NCBI GenBank assembly: GCA_963663225.1
Contig: OY760142.1
Location: 2,912,001 to 2,976,000 of the forward strand
Source: Nitrospirota bacterium
GTDB lineage: Bacteria > Nitrospirota > UBA9217
DNA length: 64,000 nucleotides
Direction: 5' to 3'
This document shows positions 3,799 to 40,035 of this stretch, piece by piece. The translations under genes and the position numbers were made by a program. The notes beneath the pieces are model-generated. The model was given only the letters and a program-made list of their open reading frames with translations. It did no database searches and had not been told where the DNA came from. Position 1 is the stretch's first letter. Each line of letters opens with the position of its first letter.

Positions 3799-4203
3799 GA
3801 ACAATCCCTCACAACACCAATGCAAAAATGAATTGTCCCATAAAACGGGAGCCGATCTAAAATTTGAGATCAAACCAGTCACGAGAAACGAAAAAGCCGA
3901 TAAAAAGAAAAATCCTTTTACCGGCGTACAGTTTCTCGGCTATGTTGACAAATCCTGGCATCATGTATTAATCGCGATCCTTTCGGGCTTCTACTACCGC
4001 GCCGCGTCTTAATTTTCACCAGAACAAAAGTGTTCGTTTTTGTTTTACATTATAGTGAGGGATTTATGAGTGGCAAATGTATCACATCTTCACTGTCAAA
4101 GCAAGCAGTTTATGCAAGTATTCATAAATACGTTCATCGAAAGAAGGGAATAAATAAAAATATTCATTCTGAAGGGACATGCATTTAAGGTACCGGCTGA
4201 TTC

Positions 4204-5751
4204 TTATATTTTTAATTGTTGATTCTTTTTGGTAAAAAAAACAGCCAGGGCTTGGGCAAATGCGGGAGCAGTGTATTCATTCGGCACAATATCGACCAGC
4301 ATACCGTATTCTTCCGCTGTTCGCGCCGTGACAGGGCCGATACAGGCAATGACTACATTTTCCATAAGGGATGGATTTTCCTTATGATCGATCAGTTCCA
4401 TGAAATTGCGCACACTGGAGGAACTGGTGAATGTAACGGCGGTTATCTTTTTGTCAGCAAGAAGTTTCTTTATATTGCTTGTTTCAGCCGTAGGCTTCAT
4501 GTTTTCATATGCGGTAACGATCGTTACATCTGCACCTTGTTCTTTTAATTTCCGAGGAATCAGCTCGCGTGCTTCCTTTGCCCGAGGGAACAACACTTTT
4601 TTCCCCTTCATGGATTCTCTGCCGAACGCATCCACCAGCCCTTCTGCCCTGAAATCCGCAGGAATTAAATCCGCTTTAATGCCGTATCGTTCGAGGTTTT
4701 CCGCAGTACTGGGACCAATCGCGCAAATTTTGGCCTTCCGCAATGCACGGACATCTTTTCCAAGGTGTTTAAGTCGTTCCATGAAAAACGTCACTGTGTT
4801 CATACTGGTAAAAATAATCCAATCATACCAGCCAAGGCTGTTCAACGCGCTGTCCAGTTCTGACCAGTTGGCCGGTGGTACGATCTCAATAACGGGAAAG
4901 CTGACAACCGATGCGCCATATTCGATGAGTTTTCCGGAAAAAGTATCAGCATGGTCCTGTGACCGGGTAACAACAATAGTCGTGCCGAACAACGGCTTTG
5001 ATTCATACCAGTTCAGTTTTTGACGAAGCTTAACAACATCACCAACAACAATTATTGCCGGAGGACCAAGCTTTGCTTTTTTTACGGCGTCCGCGATATT
5101 GTTAAGCGTACCGTCCGCGACCCTTTGGTCCGGCCGGGTGCCCCATTGAATAGCGGCGACAGGTGTATCCGGGTTCATGCCGTTTGCAAGAAGATTGGAG
5201 GCAATAGCCGGAAGATTTTTCATGCCCATAAAAAAAACGATTGTCCCGGTGCTGGCCGCGAGCTTGGTCCAATCCACTTTTGATTCAGTTTTTTCAGGAT
5301 TCTCATGGCCGGTAACAAACGTCACCGTCGCATTATGGTTCCGGTGGGTAAGCGGGATGCCTGCGTAGGTGGGGACCGCCGTTGCTGCCGAAACCCCGGG
5401 AACAACCTCAAAAGGGATATGTGCATCGGCAAGCGCTTCCGCCTCTTCGCCTCCTCTGCCGAATATGAACGGATCACCGCCTTTTAATCGCGCTATGATT
5501 TTTCCCTCTTTGGCTTTGGCGACAATCAGGGCATTGATTTCATTCTGGGGAAGCGTATGCCTGCCGCTCTGCTTGCCCACATAAATGCGTTCCGCATCCG
5601 GACGTCCTTCTGCAAGAAGTTTTTCGTTTGCCAGATAATCATAAATAATGACATCTGCTTTTTGCACGCACTCCAGGCCCTTTACCGTGATCAATCCCGG
5701 ATCACCGGGCCCTGCACCGATTAAATATACTGTTCCGACGTGTTTTTTCAT
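4204..5751 (-). CDS. cobA: Uroporphyrinogen-III C-methyltransferase/synthase fusion (CobA-HemD)
   Basis: GAGPGDPGLIT and RLKGGDPFIFGRGGEE, followed by a HemD domain (VVTRS, IFTSMN, FTSSSSV, CIGPVT). Confidence 0.92.
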   Translation of the reverse strand: MKKHVGTVYLIGAGPGDPGLITVKGLECVQKADVIIYDYLANEKLLAEGRPDAERIYVGKQSGRHTLPQNEINALIVAKAKEGKIIARLKGGDPFIFGRGGEEAEALADAHIPFEVVPGVSAATAVPTYAGIPLTHRNHNATVTFVTGHENPEKTESKVDWTKLAASTGTIVFFMGMKNLPAIASNLLANGMNPDTPVAAIQWGTRPDQRVADGTLNNIADAVKKAKLGPPAIIVVGDVVKLRQKLNWYESKPLFGTTIVVTRSQDHADTFSGKLIEYGASVVSFPVIEIVPPANWSELDSALNSLGWYDWIIFTSMNTVTFFMERLKHLGKDVRALRKAKICAIGPSTAENLERYGIKADLIPADFRAEGLVDAFGRESMKGKKVLFPRAKEARELIPRKLKEQGADVTIVTAYENMKPTAETSNIKKLLADKKITAVTFTSSSSVRNFMELIDHKENPSLMENVVIACIGPVTARTAEEYGMLVDIVPNEYTAPAFAQALAVFFTKKNQQLKI

Positions 5752-5769
5752 AGCAAAAGAAGAACGTAT

Positions 5770-7452
5770 TTATTTCTTATCACGTGCAAACGGCCAGGAG
5801 AAAAGACCGCCTTCCAGCACGCGTACATTTTTGAACTTTTCGCCTTCCAGAATTCCTTCAGCTTCGTAACCACGGAGACTGATCTTGCAAAACGTTATTA
5901 TTGTATCATCTTTCTTAAGTTCATTGCAACGGTTCCTGAGTTCTCCCAGCGGTATATGCAGAATTTTTTTGCTGTCCGCCAGTCTGGCCTGTTTATATTC
6001 ATTCAACGTTCGGACATCCAGAAAAACCACTTTTTCGTCTTCCAGCAGCTTTTTTGCCTGAAGCGGAGATATTCCCTTGAACAAGCCGCTGAGTTTGTTC
6101 AACAGCACATTTGCTGCAACTGCAACATTATCTATCGGTGAATTATAAGGCGGAGCATACGACAGGTCAATATCGAACAAATCTTCTACAGTTCCTCCAA
6201 GCGTCAGGACGGATGCGATTACATCTATCCGTTTTGCAACATCGCCCTCTCCCACAACCTGGGCACCGAGAATTTTTCGTGTTTTTGCGTCGGCTATCAG
6301 CTTGATGGTAATTAATCGGGCATTCTCCATATAGTGGGGTCTGTCATGGCCTGCGGAGATCACGGATATATAATCAGAACCAAGCTCTTTTGCTTCGCGC
6401 TCGGTAATACCGGTTTTTCCGATATTTAAATCCAGAACCTTGACTATCACCGTATTCAAAACTCCCTTGAATTTCAGCTGGCCGCCGCACACGTTTTCGC
6501 CGATAATACGCCCCTGCTTGTTGGCAGTCGATCCCATAGGAGCAAATACTTTTTGGCCTGAAATGATATTGACATTTTCGACACAATCGCCGCCAGCAAA
6601 AATATTGGGATCGCTTGTTTGGAGGTTTTGGTTCACGGATATTGCTCCAGTCGTGCCTATCGATAATCCGGATGATTTCGCTAAATCCACGTTCGGCCGC
6701 ACTCCCACCGCCAAAATAACAAGGTCCGCAGGAATGGTCCTCTTATTCGTCTCGACAGCCGACACGGTTGAATCGCCGACAAATCGAACCACCTGTTCCT
6801 GCGTCAGAATACGAAGCCCGGCTTCACGCAGATAATTTTCAGCCATCCCCGCCAGTTCCGGATCGAGAAAAGCAGGGAAAATATTATCTTTCATTTCGAG
6901 CACGGTAACATTGTCCGTCCAGATTTTGAGCGCTTCCGCCATTTCCATGCCCACCAGACCGGCGCCGATTATCACCACATTATTGTATTTGCCCTTTTCC
7001 AGGTCCTGACGGATCAATTTTGCTTCATTCGGATGCCAAAAATTGAAAATATTCTGGAGATCGACATCGGGTAAAGGAGGTGTCACGGGAGAAGCGCCTG
7101 TCGCGATCACTAGCTTATCATACGGCAGAATGTCTTCGAGGCCGGTATCCAGCTTCTTGATTGAAACCGTTTTTGCCTTTCTGTCGATTCCCGTAGCAAG
7201 CGTACGGGTCAATACCGTCACGTTTTTTACCTCATGAAAATAAGCGGAGTCACGAAGTACGCCTGCCGGAGTTTTCATGAGTTCTTCGATGGAATTTACC
7301 TCTGCACTTACATAGTACGGCAGACCGCAGGCTCCATAGGATATTAGATTCCCCTTCTCCAGAACCGTGATTTCCGCATCAGGATCCGTACGCCTAGCCT
7401 TTGATGCAGCCTTTAATCCCGTAGCAACCCCGCCTATAATGACTATCTTCAT
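5770..7452 (-). CDS. CoA-disulfide/persulfide reductase with C-terminal rhodanese domain (Npsr-like)
   Basis: IGGVATG FAD motif, SYGACGLPY active Cys, GAGLVG, YAPPY, rhodanese LDVR...FCKISLRG...LEGG. Confidence 0.88.
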   Translation of the reverse strand: MKIVIIGGVATGLKAASKARRTDPDAEITVLEKGNLISYGACGLPYYVSAEVNSIEELMKTPAGVLRDSAYFHEVKNVTVLTRTLATGIDRKAKTVSIKKLDTGLEDILPYDKLVIATGASPVTPPLPDVDLQNIFNFWHPNEAKLIRQDLEKGKYNNVVIIGAGLVGMEMAEALKIWTDNVTVLEMKDNIFPAFLDPELAGMAENYLREAGLRILTQEQVVRFVGDSTVSAVETNKRTIPADLVILAVGVRPNVDLAKSSGLSIGTTGAISVNQNLQTSDPNIFAGGDCVENVNIISGQKVFAPMGSTANKQGRIIGENVCGGQLKFKGVLNTVIVKVLDLNIGKTGITEREAKELGSDYISVISAGHDRPHYMENARLITIKLIADAKTRKILGAQVVGEGDVAKRIDVIASVLTLGGTVEDLFDIDLSYAPPYNSPIDNVAVAANVLLNKLSGLFKGISPLQAKKLLEDEKVVFLDVRTLNEYKQARLADSKKILHIPLGELRNRCNELKKDDTIITFCKISLRGYEAEGILEGEKFKNVRVLEGGLFSWPFARDKK

Positions 7453-7501
7453 GTTGATTCTCCATTATGAGAATTTTTTTATAAAATATCCGATCGGACG
7501 C

Positions 7502-7537
7502 AAAAACAGCCCCGCTCATATCGGGCGGGGCTGAAAA
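7502..7537 (-). terminator. Intrinsic terminator after dsrK2
   Basis: Stem cagccccgc...gcggggctg followed by a T-run on the minus strand. Confidence 0.75.
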
Positions 7538-7576
7538 TTGCATCAATCATGAGCCGAACAAAGACCATACGGCATT

Positions 7577-9193
7577 TTAAAATTCATCTTCCCAGGTGAT
7601 AAATGGCTTGGGTATGTCGACCATGGCATTTACCATCAGTTCAACCAGTCCGCCGTAGATAATATTATATTTTTCTTTAAAACCGTAATAATCAATCAAT
7701 GCATCACGTGCCGCGCCTTTGCAGTTAGAACAGGGCGCGCAATAATACTTCGGGATCGAAGGATCAAGCACATCTTTAAATGCTTCCAGCACCTGCCGGG
7801 CTTTCATCCGGGACGATACGCTGTTGCGCCAATCGGGAAAGTTTTGAGAATTCATGATTGCAAAGCCGCTTCCTCCGCCGCAGCAGTAATTGCTCGTTCC
7901 TGCATGGGGCATTTCCCTGAACTGCCCCGGTGTTACAATCTTGTTCAAAATATTCCGCTGCGGAGAAATAATGCCCATCAAACGCACCATATTGCATGGA
8001 TCATGGAGCGTCACCGGAAAATTGTTTTTTGCGGGATCGAATTTAATGACACCGTTCATAACAAATTGTTCCAAAAGCGGCAGGCAGGCTTCCCGGGGAA
8101 TAGCCATATCTTTTACCAGGACACGATCGGCTATAGTGATCAGGGCCTTGGTGGAATGGCCGCATTCACCAACAATAATCTTTTTTACTCCGAGGTTCTT
8201 GGCAGCCTGGACCTGGGCTAGTGCAATGCGCGCGAACTGGACATCATCATACCAGACCCCATAGTTGACTGCCTCATATCCCATCATCTCACTCGACAGC
8301 GTCCAATTCAGCCCCGCTGCGTCAAAGAGGATGGCAAAAGCCGCCGGGTTCTCGGGCCAGGCCATGTATTCTCCTGCGTTATGAATAAGAAGTATGTCAG
8401 CCCCTTTTTTATCCACCGGTATGACAATGCGCCTTCCGATTTTCTCCTCGATCATGTCTTCGATGAATTCGATATTATCTTTGAAAGCAAGCGAAGTCAT
8501 GCCTGTTGACGATCCTGTTTTTATATGCTGAACAGTGCCGGATTTGTGGACCGGATCCGGTGCGATCCCCATTTCCTGGCTGAATATCTTGCGCAACTCC
8601 CGGGAGAGCAACGCGTTGTCTACCCCCATGGGACATACCGCCGCGCAACGGCGGCACAGGCTGCACCGATATACCAGTTCAGCAAGGCGATATACCACAC
8701 GCCAGTTGAGATCAAGATCGGCTCCTGCCCATTTGCGCAACAGTTTGCCGCTTTTCGTAAAATAGCGGCGTATAATGCGTCGCAGGACTTCTGGGCGGAA
8801 ATTGGGGCGGTAAATATCCTTGTGTCCGCTTTCCACATAAATGTGGCACGCCTCATTGCAGGTGTTGCATTGCATGCAGTATTCAGTACTCAGCGTTGTC
8901 GGCAGCAGAAAACTCCAGTTGTTTTCCTTTTGAAACAGCTTTTCAAGACCGCGCAAAAAACCGTTTACAATGGCTTCTTCCTCTTCTTTCGTCTTGGGAA
9001 TGGGAAGATTGAGCGCGGAAAAACCATCAAGTGAAAAGTCGATTTTTTCTTTTGTCTCGGGCTTTACGTCCCGGAAAGACGGCTGTTTTTCTTCACCAGG
9101 GAGCGGCCGCAAATCCTCAGGCTTCAAAGGAGATACCACAGAATCCGGAGCACCGAAATCTTTTATCTTTAGTTGATGTTTTTTATTTTTCAT
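7577..9193 (-). CDS. dsrK: DsrK-like Fe-S/CCG-domain oxidoreductase, second copy (538 aa)
   Basis: CMQCNTCNEAC and CSLCRRCAAVCP clusters; GECGH, HDPCN, CCGGGSG, PCSNC. Start MKNKK at 9193 with RBS AAGGAG. Confidence 0.8.
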   Translation of the reverse strand: MKNKKHQLKIKDFGAPDSVVSPLKPEDLRPLPGEEKQPSFRDVKPETKEKIDFSLDGFSALNLPIPKTKEEEEAIVNGFLRGLEKLFQKENNWSFLLPTTLSTEYCMQCNTCNEACHIYVESGHKDIYRPNFRPEVLRRIIRRYFTKSGKLLRKWAGADLDLNWRVVYRLAELVYRCSLCRRCAAVCPMGVDNALLSRELRKIFSQEMGIAPDPVHKSGTVQHIKTGSSTGMTSLAFKDNIEFIEDMIEEKIGRRIVIPVDKKGADILLIHNAGEYMAWPENPAAFAILFDAAGLNWTLSSEMMGYEAVNYGVWYDDVQFARIALAQVQAAKNLGVKKIIVGECGHSTKALITIADRVLVKDMAIPREACLPLLEQFVMNGVIKFDPAKNNFPVTLHDPCNMVRLMGIISPQRNILNKIVTPGQFREMPHAGTSNYCCGGGSGFAIMNSQNFPDWRNSVSSRMKARQVLEAFKDVLDPSIPKYYCAPCSNCKGAARDALIDYYGFKEKYNIIYGGLVELMVNAMVDIPKPFITWEDEF

Positions 9194-10127
9194 CTCGGTC
9201 TCCTTCCTTTGAAGATTCTCCGTCAACCTGTTCACCCCAGGATTTTCCCTGGCGGATATGCGGCGCGCCCCAGGTGATTTTGTATTGCAGATATGCCGCA
9301 ATATCGTTTTCCATTGCGCTGCCGCGTTTCATCATTTCATCATCCCACATGATATTATGGTAGAAGAAGTATTTTCCCACGAAATGCATCATTCTGCTGA
9401 ACGGCAGATACAAAAGAAACAGGCAAAAAGCCAGTACCTGCAGCACAATAAGCGGTTCTTGTACCATCCCCGGCCTGAGCATTATCAGCGTCGAGACATG
9501 GTGTTTGATGATTTGGAAAGAAGGATCAGCCAATCCCCATGCAAGCAGTGCAGTTCCGAACAGGGAAAACATGCAGAATAAATTGACAAAGCTGACGGTA
9601 TCCGATATGTAATGCATGTCTTCATCAAATATCCTGAGTCCAAGCAGAATCAGGCTGCCGCAGAAACCGGCGATAAAGCTTCCAGCACCCGTAATCAAGA
9701 TCGCATAGGAGACTGCAACCAACAAAGCCGAATCTGAATTTGGTGATGCAGGAATGCCCATCAAGTCAAGAATTGATCCCAGGATGAGAAGCAGAAACCA
9801 TAAAATTCCTAGATACAACCCCGCGTGCAGTGGAAACGTTCCAATCCAGACCTTGGGATTGTTGATGTATATTTTTTTCAAAAACAACATTTCCTGGCTC
9901 ATTTCCTTCATCTCATGAAGGAGTGAGACATGGGGCTGCAACGTGTAAAAATCAACTTTCTGATATTTAGACCCTTCAGGACTCTGGTGTGGTATCGGAT
10001 ACAGATCCCAACGTAAGTGCCGCGGCATGTTTAAATACTTGATAAATGTCAAAATCGTCATCACAAAAGCCAGTACTATAGCGCAGTAAACAAGCGGACC
10101 AATAATAAACCAGGCAAGAGAAAACAT
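9183..10127 (-). CDS. dsrM: DsrM-like NarI-family membrane subunit, second copy (314 aa)
   Basis: HLRWDLYPIPH, five TM helices, YLPFSRMMH; overlaps dsrK2. Start MFSLAW at 10127. Confidence 0.75.
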   Translation of the reverse strand: MFSLAWFIIGPLVYCAIVLAFVMTILTFIKYLNMPRHLRWDLYPIPHQSPEGSKYQKVDFYTLQPHVSLLHEMKEMSQEMLFLKKIYINNPKVWIGTFPLHAGLYLGILWFLLLILGSILDLMGIPASPNSDSALLVAVSYAILITGAGSFIAGFCGSLILLGLRIFDEDMHYISDTVSFVNLFCMFSLFGTALLAWGLADPSFQIIKHHVSTLIMLRPGMVQEPLIVLQVLAFCLFLLYLPFSRMMHFVGKYFFYHNIMWDDEMMKRGSAMENDIAAYLQYKITWGAPHIRQGKSWGEQVDGESSKEGDRDEK

Positions 10128-10146
10128 AGAGAGCCCCCCGAATGGC

Positions 10147-10527
10147 TTACAGCATTCCCCATCCCCGCGTGTATTCCAGAACGATCTGAAAATCACGGTC
10201 GTTGAATCCTGACGATAAGAGCAGACGTTTTGCTTCGCCGGCTTCCATTTCCCGGGAAAAACCGTGGATTGCTTTTCTATCTGCATGAAAAACAAACCCA
10301 TGCGCGGTCAGCAATTCCATCATGGATATGACGCGCGCCATATGATCTGCGGTTTGTCCGGCCATCTGCCGTATCATATCCGTGGTAATAGGTTCGTTGT
10401 TTTTCTCCGGCGTCGTGAAAAGATGATCTTCCGGCAGCAGACTGATTGTTACCTGGGTCAGATGTGTTACAATCGGAGTCGTATTTTTTATGGTGTCAGA
10501 TTCATTCACGATGTCCACCCAATCCAT
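10147..10527 (-). CDS. Hypothetical protein upstream of dsrM2
   Basis: Fills the gap between the terminator and dsrM2, ending 19 bp before the dsrM2 start. No recognisable motif; start may be GTG at 10510-region or later. Confidence 0.6.
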   Translation of the reverse strand: MDWVDIVNESDTIKNTTPIVTHLTQVTISLLPEDHLFTTPEKNNEPITTDMIRQMAGQTADHMARVISMMELLTAHGFVFHADRKAIHGFSREMEAGEAKRLLLSSGFNDRDFQIVLEYTRGWGML

Positions 10528-10565
10528 TTCTCTGAGGAAAAAGTGTTAACAATTCTTCTTAAGAA

Positions 10566-10599
10566 AACTTTGGCCGGACATTATCATCCGGCCAAAGTT
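10566..10599 (-). terminator. Hairpin/terminator after yeiH
   Basis: Perfect 13-bp inverted repeat aactttggccgga / tccggccaaagtt. Confidence 0.7.
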
Positions 10600-10625
10600 A
10601 TTCCATTACACGTGGCTGCAGCAAC

Positions 10626-11987
10626 TTATTTGACCGACAGCCAGTAATCCACAAATACGATATTCGAGAGCCAGTAGCCCAGCGGAACATTGATAATAAC
10701 TCCGACGGTAAACGCAGCGAGCGGCTTCCATCCAAAATGAACCAGTTCGCGGAACCGAGTTGTCAAACCAATGGCTAAAAATGTCCAGGTGAATGTCCAG
10801 CCGCGGAGGTTTTTGATAACACCCAAGGCGTCCTTTGAAAAGCCTTTTCCAATCTGAGGATCAAGCATCATAATCACAAGTGTGGTAAAAATCGATGCGA
10901 CAAAGAAACCGATGACAAATTTTGGGAACCGTCTCCATACTTCGCCGTAGTCAATTCGTTCGGCCTGGGAGAGTGTTTTCTTTTCCCACATCGTAACGGA
11001 AAGGATCGCCGCCAACAGGGCCCAGAGGCCGACAAACATATCGCGACCGACGACCTTCATCAGCGTAAAAGTTTTTACGGCCCGGTCATCGCCCGGAGCC
11101 AATTGCGCCATGGCATTGTATTGCTCGGCTGCGGCAAAACCGGCAGCATCAGCGAATTCCGATGTTCCGATCCACGCACCGGCAGGCCCGGGGGCCATCC
11201 CGATGTTCTTTGCAACCAACGGCAGTACGATGACCATAACGATGGCCCAAATAATAACCATCGAAATAGCAATGGATACATGTTCTTTTTCCGCCCTGCA
11301 GGCGCCGCCGACGGCGATGGAGCCAGAAACACCGCATATCGATCCGCCCGCGCCGAGCGTGGCTGCAAACCGCGGATCAAGCTTGAACATATGCGCGGCT
11401 GCCCAATAAATCGTGAAGAAAGTAACCACCGATACGATAGTTGCCTGCAGCATTGCCAGAGGCCCGGCAGACATGATGATGGTAAACGGCAGCGTGGCGC
11501 CCATCAACACGATGCCTGTTTTTACGTAGTATTCAGTACAGAGTGCTTCCTGAAACCATGCCGGTAATTTCATGGTATTGCTGATAATCATGCCGAGCAG
11601 CAAGGCCAACAGCGGCGTTTCGAGCTGCCAGTCTTTCATTAATTTGTTGGATCCTAAAATCGTCACGACCAGCGAGATAATGAACAGAAGCGTGAATCCG
11701 CCGAGATACCGCTTGACATTGCGGCCCATGACAGCGGCGCCGATCGCGAAGGCCACAAGGAAAAACACGAAAAGAATAAATACCCCCCCGGCCTTGCTCG
11801 AGAGGGCATCAGTCACTTTACCAAAGTTATCCGACCAGCCTGGGATGGATACTGCCATTGATTTAAAAAAACCAAAACCGCCTCCTAGGAAGGTAACGGT
11901 AATGAGCAGCGTAAGACCGAGCGCAATGATGATTGCCCACGTATCTTCCCTTTTCATGATTGGCAACTGAGATTGATGCACAGCCAT
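10626..11987 (-). CDS. YeiH/PSE-family putative sulfur-compound transporter
   Basis: EYYVKTGIVLMGA, GGSICGVSGSIA, AGAWIGTSEFADAAG, RFPKFVIGF. Start MAVHQ at 11987 after AAGGAGG. Confidence 0.85.
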   Translation of the reverse strand: MAVHQSQLPIMKREDTWAIIIALGLTLLITVTFLGGGFGFFKSMAVSIPGWSDNFGKVTDALSSKAGGVFILFVFFLVAFAIGAAVMGRNVKRYLGGFTLLFIISLVVTILGSNKLMKDWQLETPLLALLLGMIISNTMKLPAWFQEALCTEYYVKTGIVLMGATLPFTIIMSAGPLAMLQATIVSVVTFFTIYWAAAHMFKLDPRFAATLGAGGSICGVSGSIAVGGACRAEKEHVSIAISMVIIWAIVMVIVLPLVAKNIGMAPGPAGAWIGTSEFADAAGFAAAEQYNAMAQLAPGDDRAVKTFTLMKVVGRDMFVGLWALLAAILSVTMWEKKTLSQAERIDYGEVWRRFPKFVIGFFVASIFTTLVIMMLDPQIGKGFSKDALGVIKNLRGWTFTWTFLAIGLTTRFRELVHFGWKPLAAFTVGVIINVPLGYWLSNIVFVDYWLSVK

Positions 11988-12056
11988 AACGGAAATCCTC
12001 CTTTTATAGAGCGATTCACCATGGATTTCTCCAGGTGTGGTCATAAACTTCGTATG

Positions 12057-12374
12057 TTATACGCATCCGGTCGGTTTCGGCAGGCCTGCCAGCTTGCACG
12101 CGCCCTTAGCAGGTCCAGAAGGAAACATTTCATAAATTTCCTTCAAGGAGAAACCGGTATCTTTGCACAGCTTCCGGATCATGGGCGCAACGCCGAATTT
12201 TTTGAAATAATCCCGAAGATAATTGATCACTTTCCAGTGGTTTTCAGTCAGCTGGTTCACGTTTTCCTGTGAGGCGAAATATGTCACCATATCGTCGCTC
12301 CAGTCATCCGGATTGACCAGGAAACCATCTTCATCCAGTTCTACATTATTTCCTTTCACCTGAACAACACTCAT
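12057..12374 (-). CDS. dsrC: DsrC sulfur carrier
   Basis: LDEDGFL...HWKVINYLRDY...FPSGPAKGACKLAGLPKPTGCV, with both C-terminal Cys (Cx10C). Confidence 0.95.
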   Translation of the reverse strand: MSVVQVKGNNVELDEDGFLVNPDDWSDDMVTYFASQENVNQLTENHWKVINYLRDYFKKFGVAPMIRKLCKDTGFSLKEIYEMFPSGPAKGACKLAGLPKPTGCV

Positions 12375-12412
12375 GCTATGCTCCCTCCCGTTTTGTGAAC
12401 TTTGTAGTCATT

Positions 12413-13750
12413 CTATTTTAGCACCAATGCCTTGCCGACCAGATCCATCAACCCTCCCATGGGCAAATCCTTGACGCCGTAATACTCCATAACCGTCGGA
12501 AGCTGGGCTTTGCATATGGAACAGGGAATGACGAAGTAATCAAGCTTTCCGAGCGCCAGTACCTGCTCGGCCTTCTTTTTGCCGAGCTGCATGCGGATTT
12601 CCTTCATTTCATCCATGAGAATGCCGGAACCGCCGCCGCAGCAGAAATTTTCCTCACGATTCGGCGTCATTTCGACAAACTCGTCGACAACAGCCTTCAA
12701 AATTTTGCGGGGTTGCTCGATCATGCCCCCGGCGCGGGCATAATTGCAGGGATCATGCAGCGTAACGCGGAGCGGCAGTTTTTTGAGCGGCATACGATCG
12801 ATATAATCAGCCGCGACTTCAAGAACGTGCCGGATTTCAAACGGCGCCGGGCCGTTTGCGCCCTCCGTGTACATTTTTGCCGCACGCCATCCGTGACCGC
12901 ATTCGCCCTGAATGACCAGCTTCGCGCCGAGCGTTTTCGCAGCGTCGAATAATCTTCGGTTGTGCTCTTTCATCACATGCAGGTTGAAAAGCAGACCGAA
13001 ATTTGCCGCTTCAAGGACGGATGAGGAGATTGTCCAGTTCAAACCAAGATAGTGAAACATCTTGGCGGCACCGATCATGGTATCAACGTTGGTGAAAAAA
13101 TCCGCGGACGATGGAACATAAAGCACATCTGATCCCGGCTTGTCGACGGGGATCTTGATGTCGATTCCGGTTTCTTCACGCATCTCATCCTGCATGAACT
13201 CTGCGGTGTCCACCGTTGCCGGTCCCGGGATCCCCATGTTATTGCCGCTTTTAACCATGTTCGCGGCGATCCCCTGCATAAATCTCGGCATAATTCCCAA
13301 TTCGGACAGTATATGCCGGGCTGCGATCGTTACTTCCGCCGTATCAATGCCGAACGGACAGAATACCGCGCAACGGCGGCATTCATTGCACTGATAATAA
13401 TACGTCAGCCATTTGGTCAATGTTTCTGCGTCAAAATCTTCCGCACCCGCGAACCTTCCGAACAGTTTTCCCTGGAGCGTGAAATACCGTTTATACACCC
13501 GGCGCATGAGTTCCGCCCGTGCCGCTGGAAAATTGTAATAATCCTGGGTGCCGAGATAGCTGTGGCATTGTTTTGCGCATTTGCCGCACTTTGTGCAGGT
13601 TTCGAGCATGACCATGAGGGAACGCATGCTTTTACGCACGTCGCCCAGTTTGGCGAGTGCGCGCAACTGCTGTTCCGGCTCCGGCGTCATGGGGAATCCA
13701 ATGGACGCAACTTCTTTTGCTTTTGCCAGATGCATGGGAGGTTTAAGCAT
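12413..13750 (-). CDS. dsrK: DsrK (HdrD-like catalytic subunit, 445 aa)
   Basis: CTKCGKCAKQC, CNECRRCAVFCPFGIDT, GECGHGWR, HDPCN, CCGGGSG, PCSIC. Start MLKPP at 13750 overlaps the dsrM stop. Confidence 0.88.
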   Translation of the reverse strand: MLKPPMHLAKAKEVASIGFPMTPEPEQQLRALAKLGDVRKSMRSLMVMLETCTKCGKCAKQCHSYLGTQDYYNFPAARAELMRRVYKRYFTLQGKLFGRFAGAEDFDAETLTKWLTYYYQCNECRRCAVFCPFGIDTAEVTIAARHILSELGIMPRFMQGIAANMVKSGNNMGIPGPATVDTAEFMQDEMREETGIDIKIPVDKPGSDVLYVPSSADFFTNVDTMIGAAKMFHYLGLNWTISSSVLEAANFGLLFNLHVMKEHNRRLFDAAKTLGAKLVIQGECGHGWRAAKMYTEGANGPAPFEIRHVLEVAADYIDRMPLKKLPLRVTLHDPCNYARAGGMIEQPRKILKAVVDEFVEMTPNREENFCCGGGSGILMDEMKEIRMQLGKKKAEQVLALGKLDYFVIPCSICKAQLPTVMEYYGVKDLPMGGLMDLVGKALVLK

Positions 13751-14519
13751 TGGCGTCCCTCTGTACGATGCGTGCGTCCCGGGTGACTCCGTTCCGGGTA
13801 GGATAAACCGGAGCAGCTTCAACCAGCATGGAGCGATTGACAAAGAAACCGGCAAGATGCACCAGTTTTGAAAACGGAAAATAGAGAAGAAACAGATTCA
13901 CCAGAGAAAAATGGGTCACGAAAACCCATTTCTGCGGTATGGGAACCGGGTGCAGCATGATGAGGCTGCCGAGATACGCGCGAATTGCAGGGAGGTCGAT
14001 TTCAAGTGAGGTAACACGCATATGCATTCCGGTTATCACGATTGCAAGAAGAAGGAGCAGGTCGAAGTAATCTGCCGGATCGGACAAACGCTTGACCTCG
14101 GGGACGGCTGTTCTTCTGTAGAAAAGCACGAGAAGAGCAACCAAGATGCCGATGCCGGAAACCGTCCCGAAAAAAGCAGACAATCGGGAGCTGGCATCTT
14201 CCGTCAAACCGATCATGGTAAACTGGTGCGTCAGATAGTAAATCCCGACAATATGTCCGATGATGATCATCAACAGCATGCCATGCATGAACCAGGCCCA
14301 GAACCAGAGTCCTTCGGAGCCGCCGCGGCGCAGACTCGTGAACAATAGCAGCTCTTTTGCAATGGCCGTTATGCGACCTGCGGTAGAATCCGGAGCCGGA
14401 AACAACGTTATTTGAAATGGTACCGGCGCCTTGAACCACGCAAGTATCCGCCCTGTCATGCCGATCAGAAAAACGGCGACGGCTATATAGGGAAAAACTT
14501 CTCCGACAAAAAAGAGCAT
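13743..14519 (-). CDS. dsrM: DsrM di-heme cytochrome b subunit
   Basis: NarI-like, with all four His (MH-x9-H and TH-x17-H, YFPFSKLVH); lies between dsrB and dsrK. Confidence 0.88.
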   Translation of the reverse strand: MLFFVGEVFPYIAVAVFLIGMTGRILAWFKAPVPFQITLFPAPDSTAGRITAIAKELLLFTSLRRGGSEGLWFWAWFMHGMLLMIIIGHIVGIYYLTHQFTMIGLTEDASSRLSAFFGTVSGIGILVALLVLFYRRTAVPEVKRLSDPADYFDLLLLLAIVITGMHMRVTSLEIDLPAIRAYLGSLIMLHPVPIPQKWVFVTHFSLVNLFLLYFPFSKLVHLAGFFVNRSMLVEAAPVYPTRNGVTRDARIVQRDANA

Positions 14520-14573
14520 ATTCGGTGACCTCCTCCGTTCCGGAAAACACGCAACCGCGCTTTGATACGCGTA

Positions 14574-15638
14574 TTAGAACTTGAATTGCGTAGTGGAACG
14601 GAATGTAGTCGTCGCATGGGTGAAATCATCTAGATGTTTATCGGTAAAGGGAAGATCCGCCAGTTTAAAAAACTTTTCCCATCCAATCCGGTTGATCCAT
14701 TCTCCCATCCGCTCACCTTCACGGGCCTTGGACGCCCACAGTTCCACCAAATTTTTTACGGCTGCGGTCGTGGAAGACCACCGGGGTGGTTCGTTCGGAA
14801 TGTACGGAATGGCAAGCCGCGAGAACATAGGAGAGTTCCTGGCATTGGACACCTTGCCGCCGACCCAGATTGACACGCCGTCATTGACCGGGTCCATGAT
14901 CTGGAGACCTGCCGGGCAGACCACCACGCAGTTGCCGCACATCATGCATTTTTCCGCAATGATCTCCACGCTCTTCACCTTCGGGTTGGGCCTGATGGCT
15001 CCGGTCGGACACGATGCGATGATATTCGGCAATTCGCACGCACGGGCCACTCCTTCATTATTGATCCGGGGTATGGTGCGGTGTATGCCGACGACCGCGA
15101 TGTCAGAGCAATGGCAGGCCCCGCACATGTTGACGCAGCAGGCAACAGCGATCCGCATGCGTGCCGGCACCTTGATCTTCCCCGTGAAATAATCGGTCAT
15201 TTCATCCATAATGCTCTTGGTTATTCCTGAAGCATCGGTGACCGCACTCTTGCAGTGTATCCATCCCTGGGTATGGACGATATTGCTGACCGAAAGGCCG
15301 ACGCCGCCGATCAGATAGTCTTTTGAGTCTAGTTCATCAATAAGCGGCTGCAGTTTTTTCTCATCAGACACCAGAAATTCAACGTTATGCCTGGTCGTGA
15401 ACCGGAGATATCCGTCGCAATAGGTATCGGCAATAGCGGTTATATCCCGTATCCAGTCACTGCTCACCAGCCGGGGCGTCGCGACGCGAACAGAATGTAT
15501 GGCTGCGCCGGTGTTGCTTACATGTTTTAATACTCCCGGACGAGGTACGGTATGATATTTCCAATTACCGTAATTCTCCTTGATGATCGGGGGGATCATT
15601 TCACGATAATCTGGCGGTCCAATATCTGTTTTGGCCAT
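14574..15638 (-). CDS. dsrB: Dissimilatory sulfite reductase beta subunit
   Basis: TDIGPP, YGNWKYH, CDGYLRFTTRHNVEF, HTQGWIHC, CCVNMCG, GGKVSNAR, RIGWEKFF, TQFKF. Confidence 0.96.
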   Translation of the reverse strand: MAKTDIGPPDYREMIPPIIKENYGNWKYHTVPRPGVLKHVSNTGAAIHSVRVATPRLVSSDWIRDITAIADTYCDGYLRFTTRHNVEFLVSDEKKLQPLIDELDSKDYLIGGVGLSVSNIVHTQGWIHCKSAVTDASGITKSIMDEMTDYFTGKIKVPARMRIAVACCVNMCGACHCSDIAVVGIHRTIPRINNEGVARACELPNIIASCPTGAIRPNPKVKSVEIIAEKCMMCGNCVVVCPAGLQIMDPVNDGVSIWVGGKVSNARNSPMFSRLAIPYIPNEPPRWSSTTAAVKNLVELWASKAREGERMGEWINRIGWEKFFKLADLPFTDKHLDDFTHATTTFRSTTQFKF

Positions 15639-15639
15639 G

Positions 15640-16824
15640 TTACTTTACCTCCTCTTTTGTCCAGAATATATAGGGGTTGCTTCGCGGTGCACGGACCATC
15701 TGAGGCAGCGGCTTAAGGCCCACTGCAGCCAGAAACTCCGAAAGCCCAACGCGCTCGATCAGTTCGCCGACCCGCTCCCTGTTCTTTCCATGCTCCGCCC
15801 ACCAGTCAGTCACTTTGTCGATCAAATCTTTCAATTCTGTGTAGGGAGCCTCCATTTTCATAAACGGCACCAGCACCCAGCCGATCATGGCGCCTTTTAC
15901 AACAGGGGCCTTGCCGCCGATAAGGATGGCGGCCCCGCGGTCGCGGCCGACGCTTATTGCTTTGGGCATCATGTTGATGCAATGCATGCAGTGGACGCAA
16001 TCTTCGGCATTCACAATGAGCTGCTTCTTCGCCGGATCCCAGTTCAAGGCCTCTGACGGGCATTTCCGGACAACACGGTTAAAAATGTCAAAACCTTTAT
16101 CGACCGTCTCGGTCACCGCAGCATTATCAATTCGGACAGCGTCGCGCCATACCCCGATAATTGCGAAATCGGAGCGGGCGGACGCGGCGGCACAATCGTT
16201 GGAGCATGCGGAAACTTTGATCTTAAATTTATACGGCCATTGCGGTCTGTGGATGAAATCCTGATAGTGCAGTGTCAGGTCGCGGATGATATCCATGCTG
16301 TTGATGCAGGCTTTTTCACACCGCGCCTGCCCCACACAGCAGGACAAGGTACGCATGGCGCCCCCAGACCCCCCGAGGTCGAAGCCGATCTCGGACAATT
16401 CATCCACACAAGGCTGCAGATTTTCCGTTGTGGTTCCCAGAAGGATAATGTCTCCCGTGGATCCGTGCATATTGTAGAGCCCGCTGCCGTACTTGTCCCA
16501 GATGTCTGCCAGTTGACGGAGCTTCTTCGTAGTATAGAAAAAACCCGCCGGCTGGTTTACCCGGATCGTGTGAAATTCCTTGACGTTGGGAAAACGATCG
16601 GCAGCGTCGGAATACCGGCCCACGACACCGCCGCCGTATCCTTTGACGCCGACAATGCCGCCGTGTTTCCAATGACCGATCTTCGCGACGTATGAAGATT
16701 CAAGCTGCTGCAGCAAATCCGCGGCGCTTTTGCTCTTTTTAGCTGCGCGTTTTATCTCGGTGACAAAACTCGGCCAGTCACCTTTTTCAAGCTCATCCAA
16801 CAGCGGGGTCTTTCCTTCTTCCAT
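15640..16824 (-). CDS. dsrA: Dissimilatory sulfite reductase alpha subunit
   Basis: TPLLDELEKGDWPSFV, HWKHGGIVGV, HGSTGD, Cx5C (CVGQARC), Cx3C (CSNDC), CVHCMHCIN, PRSNPY. Confidence 0.96.
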   Translation of the reverse strand: MEEGKTPLLDELEKGDWPSFVTEIKRAAKKSKSAADLLQQLESSYVAKIGHWKHGGIVGVKGYGGGVVGRYSDAADRFPNVKEFHTIRVNQPAGFFYTTKKLRQLADIWDKYGSGLYNMHGSTGDIILLGTTTENLQPCVDELSEIGFDLGGSGGAMRTLSCCVGQARCEKACINSMDIIRDLTLHYQDFIHRPQWPYKFKIKVSACSNDCAAASARSDFAIIGVWRDAVRIDNAAVTETVDKGFDIFNRVVRKCPSEALNWDPAKKQLIVNAEDCVHCMHCINMMPKAISVGRDRGAAILIGGKAPVVKGAMIGWVLVPFMKMEAPYTELKDLIDKVTDWWAEHGKNRERVGELIERVGLSEFLAAVGLKPLPQMVRAPRSNPYIFWTKEEVK

Positions 16825-16848
16825 CGCGGCAACCTCCTGTTTAGGGAA

Positions 16849-17031
16849 TTAATATTCCTCAACTTTTATGGCACTTACCGGACATACTGCGACACATCCC
16901 TGGCATCCCAGACACTCGTCCTCATTGGGAACCGCTTTCCCGTTTTCTATCTTGAATATTTCCGCAGGACAGGCTTTTGCACATTCACCGCATCCTGTGC
17001 ATAGTTCTTCATTGACCGTTACGACAAACAT
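16849..17031 (-). CDS. 2x[4Fe-4S] ferredoxin
   Basis: CTGCGECAKACP and CLGCQGCVAVCP; RBS GAGGGGG. Confidence 0.9.
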   Translation of the reverse strand: MFVVTVNEELCTGCGECAKACPAEIFKIENGKAVPNEDECLGCQGCVAVCPVSAIKVEEY

Positions 17032-17117
17032 GTTTTCACCCCCTCGTTTGTTGGCACCGTTTTCTACCTAATATAGTGTGACTCGACTATTTTCAGTTTA
17101 ACATCGCGGCGGATGCA

Positions 17118-17612
17118 CTATCCTCCTGCCTGGTCCGAACCTCTTTTTGACGCTATGCATTTTGCGCAAAGGCCGCAATACTGAACAAGGTGATTCGTAA
17201 TGAGAAAATTATATTTTTTTGACAACTTTTCCTGAATCGTTTCAAGAATATTCAGTTCTTCACCGATGAAATCACTGTATTCAATAATGCGGCTGCATTC
17301 CGTACAGACAAGATGGTGATGATACTTTACACATTTCGGTCCTTGCAGCAGTTCGAACCGTGCTCTGCCATCGCCAAAATCAAACCTGGCAACCATGCCC
17401 ATATTGACCAGAAGTTCCAGTGTTCTGTAGACAGTTGTCAATCCGATTGATGGCTTTTCTGCATGAACTTTAATGTAAATATCTTCTGCGCTGAGATGCT
17501 CTGTGGATTGAGACAAAATATTGAGAATGGCTTCACGGCCGGCCGTCATTCTGTGGCCGACTCGTTTAATTTTACCACTGGAATCTGAAGGCTTGCTCTG
17601 CTCCCCGGGCAT
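17118..17612 (-). CDS. Fur-family transcriptional regulator
   Basis: HLSAEDIY, GLTTVYRTLELL, HHHLVCTEC, CGLCAKC. Confidence 0.92.
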   Translation of the reverse strand: MPGEQSKPSDSSGKIKRVGHRMTAGREAILNILSQSTEHLSAEDIYIKVHAEKPSIGLTTVYRTLELLVNMGMVARFDFGDGRARFELLQGPKCVKYHHHLVCTECSRIIEYSDFIGEELNILETIQEKLSKKYNFLITNHLVQYCGLCAKCIASKRGSDQAGG

Positions 17613-17636
17613 TTTTATGCCGGCCCTCCATTATTG

Positions 17637-17684
17637 TTAATGAAAACCATTTCCATTAATACCACATTGTAAATAAGCTGTCAA
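17637..17684 (-). promoter_or_regulatory. Sigma70 promoter of the fur-dsr operon with an overlapping palindromic operator
   Basis: Minus strand TTGACA (17684-17679), 17 bp, TATTAA with an extended TG. Near-palindrome TTAATGGAAATGGTTTTCATTAA at 17637-17659. Confidence 0.7.
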
Positions 17685-17875
17685 GCTCTTTCTGACACTT
17701 CAGCAATCTTGGACCACATAACTTTAAAGCATTTATTGTAGGATATTATGCGTGAGGAATATTGATTTTTTTAAATCTTTATTGTACTATAGCATGTTTT
17801 TAGGGCTTCATTACACATTGGAATAATTTCTACTTTCCCCTTTTCTTTTAAATTCATACTGGACATCACCGGGAG

Positions 17876-18616
17876 TTGTGGATGGATGCGGTTCAGAGGG
17901 ATATAAACATTAAAATCAAGGAAATCACAGAAACCTGGGGGGCTGACTTTGTTGGCGTGGCAGATATAAAGCAGGCTCATGAAGCAATTCTGGATCAGGG
18001 CGGTCCGATAATTGCTGAATATCCTCTGGCTATTTCCGTTGGAATTGGCCTGCAACACTCCATTGTGGAACAACTCCCGGAGCGTGCCAACCGGACAGTG
18101 GCATTAAGCTACCAGTACCACAGCTATGATCTTGTCAACCAGCGGCTTGACCTTCTCATAAAGCAAATAAGCAGATTCCTGCAACGTGCCGGCTATCAAG
18201 CACTGCCCGTACCTGCCTCAAAACAGATTGATGACGAACGCATCTGTGCGGCGTTCTCTCACAAAATGGCTGCGCATTTGGCCGGTTTAGGCTGGATCGG
18301 CAAAAGCTGCTTATTGGTCACCCCGGAAATGGGGCCGCGTGTGCGATGGGCCACGGTGCTTACTGATGCACCTTTGCAGACAACCCGGAAGGCCCTTGAG
18401 GGGCAATGCGGTGACTGCAGACTGTGTGTGGATATTTGTCCTGTTCACGCCTTTACGGGAACTTCCTTCCGTACGTCTGAACCGCGCGGAAAACGGTATG
18501 ATGCTGCCAAATGTGAACGGTATTTTTCCAAAATGAGAGAAGAAAACAACGGTCTTGCGGTCTGCGGTCTCTGCTTATATATTTGCCCGCATGGGAAACG
18601 GCAGAACCGCAACTAA
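17876..18616 (+). CDS. QueG/reductive-dehalogenase-like 4Fe-4S double-cluster protein
   Basis: SHKMAAHLAGLGWIGKSCLLVTPEMGPRVRW, CGDCRLCVDICP, CGLCLYICP. Confidence 0.8.
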   Translation: MWMDAVQRDINIKIKEITETWGADFVGVADIKQAHEAILDQGGPIIAEYPLAISVGIGLQHSIVEQLPERANRTVALSYQYHSYDLVNQRLDLLIKQISRFLQRAGYQALPVPASKQIDDERICAAFSHKMAAHLAGLGWIGKSCLLVTPEMGPRVRWATVLTDAPLQTTRKALEGQCGDCRLCVDICPVHAFTGTSFRTSEPRGKRYDAAKCERYFSKMREENNGLAVCGLCLYICPHGKRQNRN

Positions 18617-18620
18617 TTTT

Positions 18621-19271
18621 TTATATCAATCCAGTTCCTTTCAGTATTTCGTTTTCTATGTGTTGCTTAACGTGTGAAAACCCTCTTTTCTTCAATAGGT
18701 CAAGAATCCTCCGGCTACCCAACTCTTTCAAAATATGGTTCTTCTCGACGCTTGCTAAAGAAGACGATTCGGCAACGGTCTTTACAATCTTCGGACGCAT
18801 CTTTTTCAGATACGCCAGATATCGAGATAACTCAGATGGAAAAACATCTTCCAATGCTTTTCTGAGTGTCTTTGTAAGTGCGGGACTTATACCGGAACTT
18901 GAAATAGCAATTGTGAGAGGGCCCTTCCGAACTACAGAAGGCATGATAAAACTGCACTGTTCAGGAATATCAACAACATTGATAAGTTGCGGCGCATCAT
19001 CCGCAATAATACTGTTTATTTCCTGATCTGAAGTCGCCGCTATAACAAGAAAAGCATCATTTGCATCATTCTTTCTAAAACATCTTTTCTTCGATTTAAC
19101 CCTTTTTGCAGTTAAAAGTTTTTCGAGGCCCGGCGTCAAACAGGGGCTGATAACGGTTATGTCCGCCCCAGTCGGAAGAAGCTGCTTTACCTTCCTTTCA
19201 GCTACACTCCCTCCCCCGATGACAACACATTTTTTTTTATTGAGATTTAAAAATACCGGGAAAAATTTCAT
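18621..19271 (-). CDS. sirC: Precorrin-2 dehydrogenase/sirohydrochlorin ferrochelatase (SirC/Met8/CysG N-terminal)
   Basis: FPVFLNL, VIGGGSVAERK, LINVVD.P..CSF..P, AISSSGISPAL. Confidence 0.88.
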   Translation of the reverse strand: MKFFPVFLNLNKKKCVVIGGGSVAERKVKQLLPTGADITVISPCLTPGLEKLLTAKRVKSKKRCFRKNDANDAFLVIAATSDQEINSIIADDAPQLINVVDIPEQCSFIMPSVVRKGPLTIAISSSGISPALTKTLRKALEDVFPSELSRYLAYLKKMRPKIVKTVAESSSLASVEKNHILKELGSRRILDLLKKRGFSHVKQHIENEILKGTGLI

Positions 19272-40022: not shown

Positions 40023-40035
40023 TGAATCACTCCTT

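Follow-up and report, generated by a model that had tools for sequence, protein, structure and literature searches.

A Negativicutes-type, sulfite-level dsr operon, probably acquired laterally, in a Nitrospirota lineage in which canonical sulfate-reduction genes were not found

The DNA analysed here (hereafter, the window) is a stretch of 64,000 nucleotides from a Nitrospirota bacterium, corresponding to positions 2,912,001-2,976,000 of a one-contig genome of 3,255,001 bp that is 98.99% complete (G000 in our genome set). Positions are given in window coordinates unless otherwise indicated, and start codons were refined by analysis of ribosome-binding sites and overlaps. Between 5770 and 17031, on the minus strand, the window holds a dissimilatory sulfite reductase (dsr) cassette with the order fdx-dsrA-dsrB-dsrM-dsrK-dsrC-yeiH-orphan-M2-K2-CoADR/rhodanese, flanked by a fur gene and by siroheme genes; the longest intergenic gap from fur through cobA/hemD is 124 nt. 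A family search of the whole genome placed dsrA and dsrB in this cassette only. These genes had been listed by a first-pass annotation made from the letters of the window, and the listed genes were confirmed on the minus strand; the title of that annotation omitted, in turn, a plus-strand gene for a QueG/RdhA-like protein (17876-18616).

The core of the list (intact dsrA, dsrB and dsrC, two dsrMK pairs, and dsrB directly before dsrM) is borne out by family models and by inspection. DsrA (15640-16824) obtains 550.5 bits with TIGR02064 (cut-off 392.85) and DsrB (14574-15638) 476.2 bits with TIGR02066 (cut-off 341.5), the latter aligning over its full length with A. fulgidus DsrB (3mm5_B, E 1.3e-126). 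The 54 nt between dsrB and dsrM contain no open reading frame (ORF). DsrC (12057-12374) scores 125.1 bits with TIGR03342 (cut-off 53.5), and its C-terminus, ...CKLAGLPKPTGCV, carries both conserved cysteines. DsrM (13743-14519) is a short NarI-like cytochrome b of the Gram-positive type, with His pairs within two predicted helices; despite passing the Pfam cut-off (PF02665, Nitrate_red_gam, 73.5 against 22.9 bits), it obtains 103.3 bits, below 300, with NF038037. That model derives from the DsrM of DsrMKJOP complexes, which reaches 518-550 bits in three of the loci fetched for comparison (L007, L095 and L100). DsrK (12413-13750, with its start refined to the ATG at 13750) is HdrD-like, has two 4Fe-4S motifs (Fer4_8) and a CCG domain, and scores 416.7 bits with NF045796 (cut-off 400). 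The first gene of the common cassette, fdx (16849-17031), codes for a 2x[4Fe-4S] ferredoxin of 60 amino acids (aa), recognised by reading the sequence and by NCBIfam ferredoxin-type matches, and a ferredoxin with 55-68% identity is found directly upstream of dsrA in Negativicutes loci.

Downstream of dsrC, the cassette continues with less familiar genes. The YeiH-family membrane protein (10626-11987), a candidate sulfite transporter with about 10 hydrophobic segments, meets the cut-off of PF03601 (159 against 24.5 bits), remains below that of TIGR00698 (91.5 against 232.6), and is 61-78% identical to its counterparts in Negativicutes loci. It is followed by the orphan (10147-10527), a soluble protein that is small (about 115 aa) and conserved, is devoid of cysteine and ends, in alignments of its homologues, with the invariant residues ...EYTRGWGML. 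No Pfam match was obtained for it at E<=5, and 12 homologues gave scattered chance-level hits only; among 5.8 billion clusters, 165 relatives were retrieved, all of them unnamed or 'hypothetical', with Negativicutes or Bacillota as the named sources. The orphan is present in 12 of the 80 fetched loci and, wherever M2 occurs, it lies between yeiH (dsrC in L015) and M2.

M2 (9183-10127), the polytopic membrane partner of K2, is a distant DsrM/NarI relative with 5-6 hydrophobic segments (28% identity to DsrM over 119 aa; 27.3 bits with the DsrM model, below 300). Four histidines (H37, H101, H248 and H290) are conserved across 55 sequences, two of them in predicted helices. K2 (7577-9193) is a DsrK/HdrD paralogue, 33% identical to DsrK (327.7 bits with the DsrK model, below 400), and carries an additional N-terminal stretch of ~95 residues that is conserved in its family; in both DsrK and K2, all the Fe-S and CCG cysteines are conserved. 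Of 48 K2 homologues, 42 measure 529-576 aa, the others being three sequences truncated at contig ends and three of 460 aa, and a sequence search of the PDB returned no relative at E<=1e-3. M2-K2 directly follows dsrC in 31 of the 80 loci, labelled Syntrophorhabdus, Dehalococcoidia/Chloroflexota or 'delta proteobacterium', many of which also hold a separate dsrMK(JOP); on the basis of this adjacency, M2K2 is proposed to act on DsrC. The last gene of the cassette (5770-7452) codes for a CoADR-like flavoprotein with a C-terminal rhodanese domain (Pyr_redox_2 208 bits, Rhodanese 52 bits). Its domain architecture is that expected, its scores are below those of two CoADR equivalog models (410.8 against 578.8 for TIGR03385; 403.8 against 458 for the second), and it is 63-66% identical to cassette-linked copies that follow K2 in L004 and L005 or precede dsrA in L011 and L012. 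Judged from these features, it is a putative Npsr-like persulfide reductase.

The region has also been assembled independently, as a 62-kb contig from another study spans window positions 3900-19900 with 719 differences (~95% identity). Two runs labelled 'RNA? (probably DNA)' yielded only short contigs at 90-99% likeness and are neutral on expression, and a terminator scan found 19 candidates when 17 were expected.

The canonical gene set, reported as absent from the window by the first-pass annotation, was looked for in the whole genome. Family searches gave zero matches for aprA, sat, DsrJ, DsrD and DsrE/TusD. As two of the family searches had silent controls, further queries were drawn from relatives' loci (DsrD, J, T, M, K, O, P and N) and used in tblastn, with which DsrD, DsrJ, DsrT, DsrN and DsrP produced no match at E<=1e-3, DsrO produced generic Fe-S matches only, and DsrM and DsrK matched the two local pairs only. 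For control, aprA was above its cut-off in 17 of 41 relatives and the same tblastn queries, except those for DsrD, matched 12-49 of 82 other loci; the DsrD control was weak, with the Pfam domain in 3 of the 41 relatives (one above cut-off) and query matches in 0-1 of the 82 loci. With regard to the canonical Sat-AprAB-Qmo-DsrABCD-DsrMKJOP pathway, aprA, sat, dsrD, dsrJ and dsrP were thus not found genome-wide (qmo, and aprB by itself, were not searched for), and with regard to an oxidative rDsr system, no TusD/DsrE match was obtained genome-wide (dsrL was not searched for). The PAPS-reductase family gave one marginal match of 26 bits. This gene content agrees with the earlier proposal that the module works at the level of sulfite and not of sulfate.

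No Phs, Psr, Ttr, Nar or Nap enzyme was recognised among the molybdoenzymes of the genome, the named ones being two selenocysteine (Sec)-containing formate dehydrogenases of the FDH-N type, one Fdh-alpha-like protein and NuoG; two further proteins (a Sec-containing one of 918 aa and another of 1183 aa) are formate-dehydrogenase-like by their N-termini only. The two FDH-N alpha subunits are neighbours, at ~2.662-2.672 Mb of the genome (L107:1147-4194 and L108:988-4161), and are periplasmic; each contains a Tat signal and a TGA codon in frame (selenocysteine), and they score 1434 and 1414 bits.

Regarding the distribution of the cassette, the first-pass annotation had seen in the locus a candidate for an undescribed system and had advised a search for its gene order in other genomes. 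Once run, this search found dsrA-dsrB-dsrM-dsrK-dsrC-yeiH-orphan-M2-K2 intact in 7 of the 80 fetched loci, six from Negativicutes plus L003. In these seven the order is kept with fdx included, at 44-85% identity per gene, and the contig of a further locus, L014, stops within dsrK. The closest public DsrA sequences (98% identity) belong to L003 and L014, from two metagenome-assembled genomes (MAGs) labelled 'uncultured Nitrospiraceae bacterium', and a third such MAG (L007) has one at 80%. L003 and L014 correspond to same-genus genomes of our set (G004 and G002, respectively) and share the housekeeping flank of the window (GatB, SurA, PilZ and M20 peptidase) at 83-98% identity. The next-closest DsrA sequences (75-83%) are all from Negativicutes, namely Anaerospora hongkongensis, Sporomusaceae UBA1887, Dendrosporobacter, Lucifera butyrica, Pelosinus and Sporomusa rhizae, with values of 82-83% for Anaerospora, Sporomusaceae and Dendrosporobacter. 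Additionally, DsrM is 65-68% identical to its Negativicutes counterparts and DsrK 81-84% identical to those of Anaerospora and UBA1887.

The host family has a different DsrA. A DsrA match at E<=1e-100 was obtained in 54 of 64 family genomes (own genome included), and the window type is present in G000, G002 and G004 only. The remaining 51 hold a native type that is 57-63% identical to the window DsrA and usually accompanied by AprA. Within the genus, G005 has the native DsrA together with AprA, and G001 and G003 have neither.

Concatenated DsrAB trees were built with 64 rows (quick) and with 41 rows (careful, L014 being left out), 30 of 93 DsrAB pairs having been dropped beforehand (duplicates, partial sequences, many near-identical Syntrophorhabdus-like rows and three 'second copy' pairs at 28-35%). 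The window, L003, L014 and L007 form one clade that lies several nodes inside the Negativicutes, with support values of 100/99 and 100/98 for the enclosing clades, and the native DsrAB of the host family forms a separate clade. In an approximately unbiased (AU) test, a tree that joins the native type to the window clade is rejected (delta lnL 345, p-AU 2e-10). The neighbouring sequences include sulfate-reducer lineages such as Pelotomaculum; as the tree holds no named oxidative-type or archaeal references, the assignment to the reductive clade rests on these named neighbours. The early suggestion of an archaeal or early-diverging Dsr set is thus not supported, DsrAB grouping, by these neighbours, with the reductive bacterial sequences of Bacillota and being nested within Negativicutes. 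By contrast, lateral acquisition, which had also been suggested, is supported both by this nesting and by the AU test. The opposite pattern named in the first-pass annotation, that is, dsrD, dsrN, dsrJOP, sat or apr elsewhere in the genome together with a DsrAB congruent with the host, was looked at and was not what the genome searches and the DsrAB trees returned. The donor group does not reduce sulfate, AprA being above its cut-off in none of four Negativicutes carriers. AprA-like proteins were seen in Anaerospora hongkongensis (G081:C6:160658-162334) and Dendrosporobacter (G084:C10:54959-56548), with 381 and 331 bits against a cut-off of 641.75; they fit the 'AprAB-like' proteins of Negativicutes reported in the DiSCo paper (PMC8477390).

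The genes around the cassette have a more mixed history, and the idea of a portable module with its own regulator and cofactor supply stands only for the core, whose order recurs in the six Negativicutes loci. The fur gene (17118-17612, minus strand; PF01475, 108 bits) is 97% identical in L003 and L014 and 78% in L007, but no homologue is found in any Negativicutes locus, so that the regulator is a feature of the Nitrospirota versions only. The QueG/RdhA-like Fe-S protein (246 aa; 65 bits with TIGR00276, below 200) accompanies fur in these versions, at 88-93% identity in L003/L014 and 71% in L007. On the left side, the cobA/hemD fusion (4204-5751, minus strand), identified by family models as uroporphyrinogen-III methyltransferase plus synthase, is the only copy in the genome and is 66-67% identical to orthologues in G003 and G005, which are located in a conserved hem operon (as is hemD alone in G001, a genome that has no cysG-N). 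As the rest of the hem operon is found at 3.093-3.100 Mb in the own genome, cobA/hemD is considered native and relocated beside the cassette. On the right side, cysG-N (18621-19271, minus strand; precorrin-2 dehydrogenase/sirohydrochlorin ferrochelatase, 143 bits with TIGR01470 against 62.3) is likewise present as a single copy, 39-43% identical to homologues from the genus and family. Synteny with G001, G003 and G005 ends at ~19,536, just left of a gene (19539-19823, plus strand) for a 94-aa 'CC/Se motif family (seleno)protein' (NF041239, 54 bits against 40) that marks the right edge of the variable region. In two Selenomonadales loci (L049 and L071), a homologue of this protein (45%) lies immediately after the cassette.

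A putative promoter/operator region (17612-17700, minus strand) was recognised upstream of fur by aligning the window with L003, L014 and L007. A TTGACA hexamer is invariant in the four sequences. The stretch that separates the -10 region from the start of fur contains a palindrome, TTAATG-N11-CATTAA; it is identical in L003, has two central differences in L014 and reads GTAATG-N11-CATTAC in L007. From this arrangement we infer autoregulation of fur and its co-transcription with fdx-dsr. In the two Negativicutes loci that were annotated in this respect (L005 and L012), a LysR regulator is found directly upstream of the cassette, its best models being a selenium-associated LysR and then YeiE (189-219 bits against a cut-off of 480), both below cut-offs.

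Taken together, the gene order common to six Negativicutes loci and the nesting of DsrAB indicate a Negativicutes-type sulfite module acquired laterally. We therefore regard the locus, with a probability of about seven in ten, as a reductive sulfite-level Dsr operon of Negativicutes type that was gained by a Nitrospirota lineage without the sulfate-reduction pathway of its family. As to its mechanism, family memberships and conserved motifs are observed, and the remaining steps are proposed on those grounds. It is known that DsrAB reduces sulfite onto DsrC, generating a trisulfide, and that DsrMK(JOP) reduces this trisulfide with the release of sulfide (PMC10504309, PMC8477390). In the cassette, sulfite would be formed inside the cell from thiosulfate, through rhodanese chemistry, or from sulfonates, and DsrAB, with electrons from the co-encoded ferredoxin, would reduce it to the DsrC trisulfide. 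The two-subunit DsrMK would then use menaquinol, which could come from the two periplasmic formate dehydrogenases among other sources, to reduce the trisulfide, releasing H2S and regenerating DsrC. M2K2 may be a second membrane-linked reductase acting on DsrC or on another sulfane carrier, perhaps with the orphan as an accessory partner, and the CoADR-rhodanese protein may reduce persulfide or sulfane sulfur with NAD(P)H. YeiH would carry sulfite across the membrane, a role consistent with its being required for sulfite stress resistance in Salmonella (PMC12880088), and the Fur-family protein would control fur-fdx-dsr through the conserved palindrome at its own promoter.

The substrate is likely to be sulfite derived from thiosulfate or sulfonates. 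With respect to thiosulfate, Lucifera butyrica, whose locus (L008) has the order fdx-dsrABMKC-M2-K2, reduces thiosulfate to sulfide (up to 4.5 mM) and has no thiosulfate reductase gene, according to its published description (PMC6315149), and the same source states that added sulfate or sulfite is not used as acceptor. With respect to sulfonates, Bilophila employs HpsG and IslA to liberate the sulfite that enters DsrAB respiration (PMC8397734), and the own genome holds a glycyl-radical enzyme that exceeds the HpsG model NF048011 (1549.6 bits against 1000), with an activase that exceeds NF048010 (463.5 against 430); the best solved relatives of the lyase, whose substrate may be isethionate or DHPS, are the isethionate sulfite-lyases 5ymr (1357 bits) and 7kq3 (1258), and then 6lon (1200). 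An IslA/HpsG-type lyase is above cut-off in one of 41 relatives, the own genome, and was not found in the cassette carriers G002 and G004; it is a strain-level addition, outside the general role of the cassette. The genes of this lyase cluster, at approximately 1,635,985-1,644,189 of the own genome (L123:5985-14189), comprise the lyase, its activase, an acetylating acetaldehyde dehydrogenase, a sigma-54 activator and an SsuA-like binding protein.

Several observations weigh against our interpretation. The failure of Lucifera to use sulfite when it was added makes the physiological substrate uncertain, and since the lyase is not found in G002 and G004, sulfonate respiration cannot be the general role of the cassette. 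For M2K2, the orphan, YeiH, the ferredoxin and Fur, the functions given here are all inferences. In addition, the composition of the cassette resembles that of the genome (GC 0.498 versus 0.494; tetranucleotide distance at the 51st percentile) and adds no support for a transfer, which means that the event is old or that the donor was of similar composition, and neither a mobility gene nor an att site was found bounding the cassette. The group used in the AU test was chosen after the first tree had been seen, and the negative result for DsrD is weaker than the others as a consequence of its weak controls.

Of the other explanations, the most serious, albeit unlikely, is that the cassette mainly serves sulfite detoxification and sulfide supply: YeiH would export sulfite and DsrAB would remove it, the sulfide being used to make cysteine and Fe-S centres in an organism unable to activate sulfate. 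Such a function would be in line with the fact that YeiH drives sulfite stress resistance in Salmonella under the sulfite-binding LysR protein YeiE (PMC12880088), with the LysR gene, having YeiE as second-best model, that precedes the cassette in both Negativicutes loci examined, with sat not being found and the PAPS-reductase match being marginal, and with the lack of growth of Lucifera on sulfite as acceptor (PMC6315149). However, detoxification would not need DsrMK and a second quinone-linked pair, which are membrane energy-coupling modules, an 11-gene operon rich in Fe-S and haem would be costly for that alone, and Lucifera produces millimolar sulfide from thiosulfate used as electron acceptor. 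It is far less probable that the module serves to disproportionate sulfur or runs oxidatively. Sulfur disproportionation occurs in some Nitrospirota, a rhodanese-persulfide enzyme is encoded in the cassette, and DsrD, an activator tied to the reductive direction, was not found; but DsrAB falls, judged by its named neighbours in the tree, within the reductive bacterial group of Bacillota, neither DsrE/TusD nor aprA or sat, which would take sulfite further, is found, and the one cultured carrier with data reduces thiosulfate.

We give similarly little credit to a transfer in the reverse direction, from Nitrospirota to Negativicutes, or from a third group to both. The root of the DsrAB tree was set by an outgroup picked from the same phylum, and the window-type DsrA is also patchy in Negativicutes (25 of 301 sampled genomes), both of which would allow it; nevertheless, the four Nitrospirota-labelled rows form a small clade deep among 16 Negativicutes/Bacillota rows, with more Bacillota branching below, and 51 of the 64 host-family genomes hold the different native type. 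Beyond the acquisition of a Negativicutes-type operon, a bolder proposal can be made, which we consider doubtful, although somewhat less so than these alternatives. The 11-gene cassette might be a mobile 'sulfite-respiration kit' that crosses phyla, in which orphan-M2-K2 would be a second membrane-bound reductase of DsrC or a sulfane carrier, with a small subunit, and the kit might have let a Nitrospirota lineage replace sulfate respiration with the respiration of thiosulfate or organosulfonates. M2K2 without the orphan follows dsrC in Syntrophorhabdia, Chloroflexota and others. Respiration of thiosulfate or organosulfonates in place of sulfate has until now been associated with Desulfovibrionaceae such as Bilophila, which, in contrast to the lineage described here, uses DsrMKJOP and DsrD.

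The closest described system is the minimal set of DsrABC and a two-subunit DsrMK of Gram-positive sulfite and sulfate reducers within the Bacillota (Neukirchen et al. 2023, PMC10504309; DiSCo, PMC8477390), with which the cassette shares a DsrAB that, by its neighbours, is of the reductive bacterial type, the two-Cys DsrC, a DsrMK without JOP and the location of dsrMK inside the dsrAB-dsrC cluster. It differs in being without dsrD and dsrN, in its Nitrospirota host, in whose genome sat and apr were not found, and in the conserved yeiH, orphan, M2K2 and CoADR-rhodanese genes that it adds. The minimal DsrABCMK concept, organisms with DsrMK only and an 'alternative DsrMK type' have already been published (PMC10504309, PMC8477390), and the presence of two DsrMK types in one organism had likewise been noted in PMC8477390 and in section 7 of PMC10504309. 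The dsr cluster of Negativicutes (Anaerospora hongkongensis, Sporomusa rhizae, Dendrosporobacter, Pelosinus) is alike in its order, fdx-dsrABMKC-yeiH-orphan-M2-K2(-npsr), and in having no bona fide AprA; it differs in having a LysR/YeiE-like regulator (two loci examined) in place of Fur and neither cobA/hemD nor cysG-N in its flanks, and in Lucifera also in the absence of yeiH and the orphan from that position.

Other likenesses are more partial. Organosulfonate respiration in Bilophila wadsworthia (PMC8397734) also involves a glycyl-radical sulfite-lyase and its activase in a DsrABC genome without sulfate activation; here, however, the lyase is 1.3 Mb from the dsr operon and was not found in the cassette-carrying sister species. 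The YeiE-YeiH system of Salmonella (PMC12880088) shares a PF03601 membrane protein linked to sulfite and, in the two Negativicutes loci, an upstream YeiE-like LysR, whereas the window protein is about 100 residues longer, is below the TIGR00698 cut-off and is encoded within a dsr operon, presumably under a Fur-family regulator. Npsr from Shewanella loihica and Archaeoglobus fulgidus (PMC7969121) is likewise a CoADR-like flavoprotein with a C-terminal rhodanese, and the window protein differs in being below the CoADR equivalog cut-offs. Nitrospirota are among 14 taxa with laterally gained dsrAB in PMC10591310, where the only Nitrospirota case named involves the family SM23-35 and a Desulfobacterota lineage; the main text of that paper contains no mention of Negativicutes, Sporomus*, Selenomonad*, Firmicutes_C or Bacillota_C. 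More generally, the main texts of the literature consulted contain no description of the cassette or of a dsr transfer from Negativicutes to Nitrospirota, while the supplements and figures of PMC10504309 and PMC10591310, which lie beyond this coverage, may list these genomes.

What is described here is, therefore, a Negativicutes-type sulfite-reduction cassette in a Nitrospirota lineage without the canonical pathway; three conserved components of the cassette, the orphan, M2K2 and a YeiH-type transporter in a dsr operon, are uncharacterised. Surveys of sulfate and sulfite reducers use dsrAB as their standard marker, and Nitrospirota that carry these genes are routinely taken to reduce sulfate. 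For a lineage that belongs to a family of sulfate reducers, gives no apr or sat matches and carries a foreign, sulfite-only cassette, marker surveys would mis-assign both the taxonomy, the DsrAB being Negativicutes-like, and the physiology. The orphan, M2K2 and YeiH bear on the mechanism by which organisms that have neither Phs nor DsrMKJOP respire thiosulfate and sulfite, and they may be studied in culture, given that Sporomusa rhizae, Anaerospora hongkongensis and Lucifera butyrica have strain designations or a published isolation.

Some additional observations were made on related loci and on the rest of the genome. L007, from a Nitrospirota MAG of another family (outside the 64 genomes), has a hybrid dsr cluster (L007:9043-21095) in which window-type fur-fdx-dsrAB is followed by a possible DsrT and canonical DsrM-K-J-O-P (518 bits for DsrM and 735 for DsrK), and then by window-type dsrC-yeiH-orphan-M2; aprA was not found in this 3.2-Mb MAG at E<=1e-50 (its completeness is not given). 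Directly upstream of its fur-dsr genes (L007:5090-8766), there are genes for an 858-aa protein, with a GltD-like NAD(P)-binding part and a CCG/HdrD-like C-terminal part, and for a tandem-rhodanese protein, and homologues of this pair (71-74%) are found at 945,958-949,584 of the own genome. The two proteins may represent another sulfane or heterodisulfide reductase linked to the pathway.

An integrative element of 8.3 kb (GC 0.365, against 0.494 for the genome) is inserted at a tRNA-Ala(GGC) gene to the left of the window, at 2,900,544-2,908,979 of the own genome (L118:6544-14979). Besides several ORFs that match no Pfam family, it encodes a tyrosine integrase, an excisionase-like HTH_17 protein and a Zn-dependent phospholipase C; a direct repeat of 52 nt, corresponding to the 3' half of the tRNA, delimits it. 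Its integrase was considered as the carrier of the dsr cassette and rejected, as the element is a separate unit that ends 3 kb before the window and the cassette lies outside it; no att-like repeat of the 3' end of tRNA-Ala was found in the window with up to 3 mismatches. At ~458.6-465.0 kb (L122:3571-10039), the genome holds a second glycyl-radical enzyme, of 811 aa and of the PFL2/glycerol-dehydratase family (763 bits), with its activase, which adjoins a corrinoid protein, a 4-hydroxy-2-oxovalerate aldolase and an acetaldehyde dehydrogenase. Finally, a hopanoid gene set is present within the window at 39174-46225, comprising a squalene-hopene cyclase, a radical-SAM/DUF3463 (HpnH-like) protein, an MMPL transporter and a protein of a carotenoid-synthesis family.

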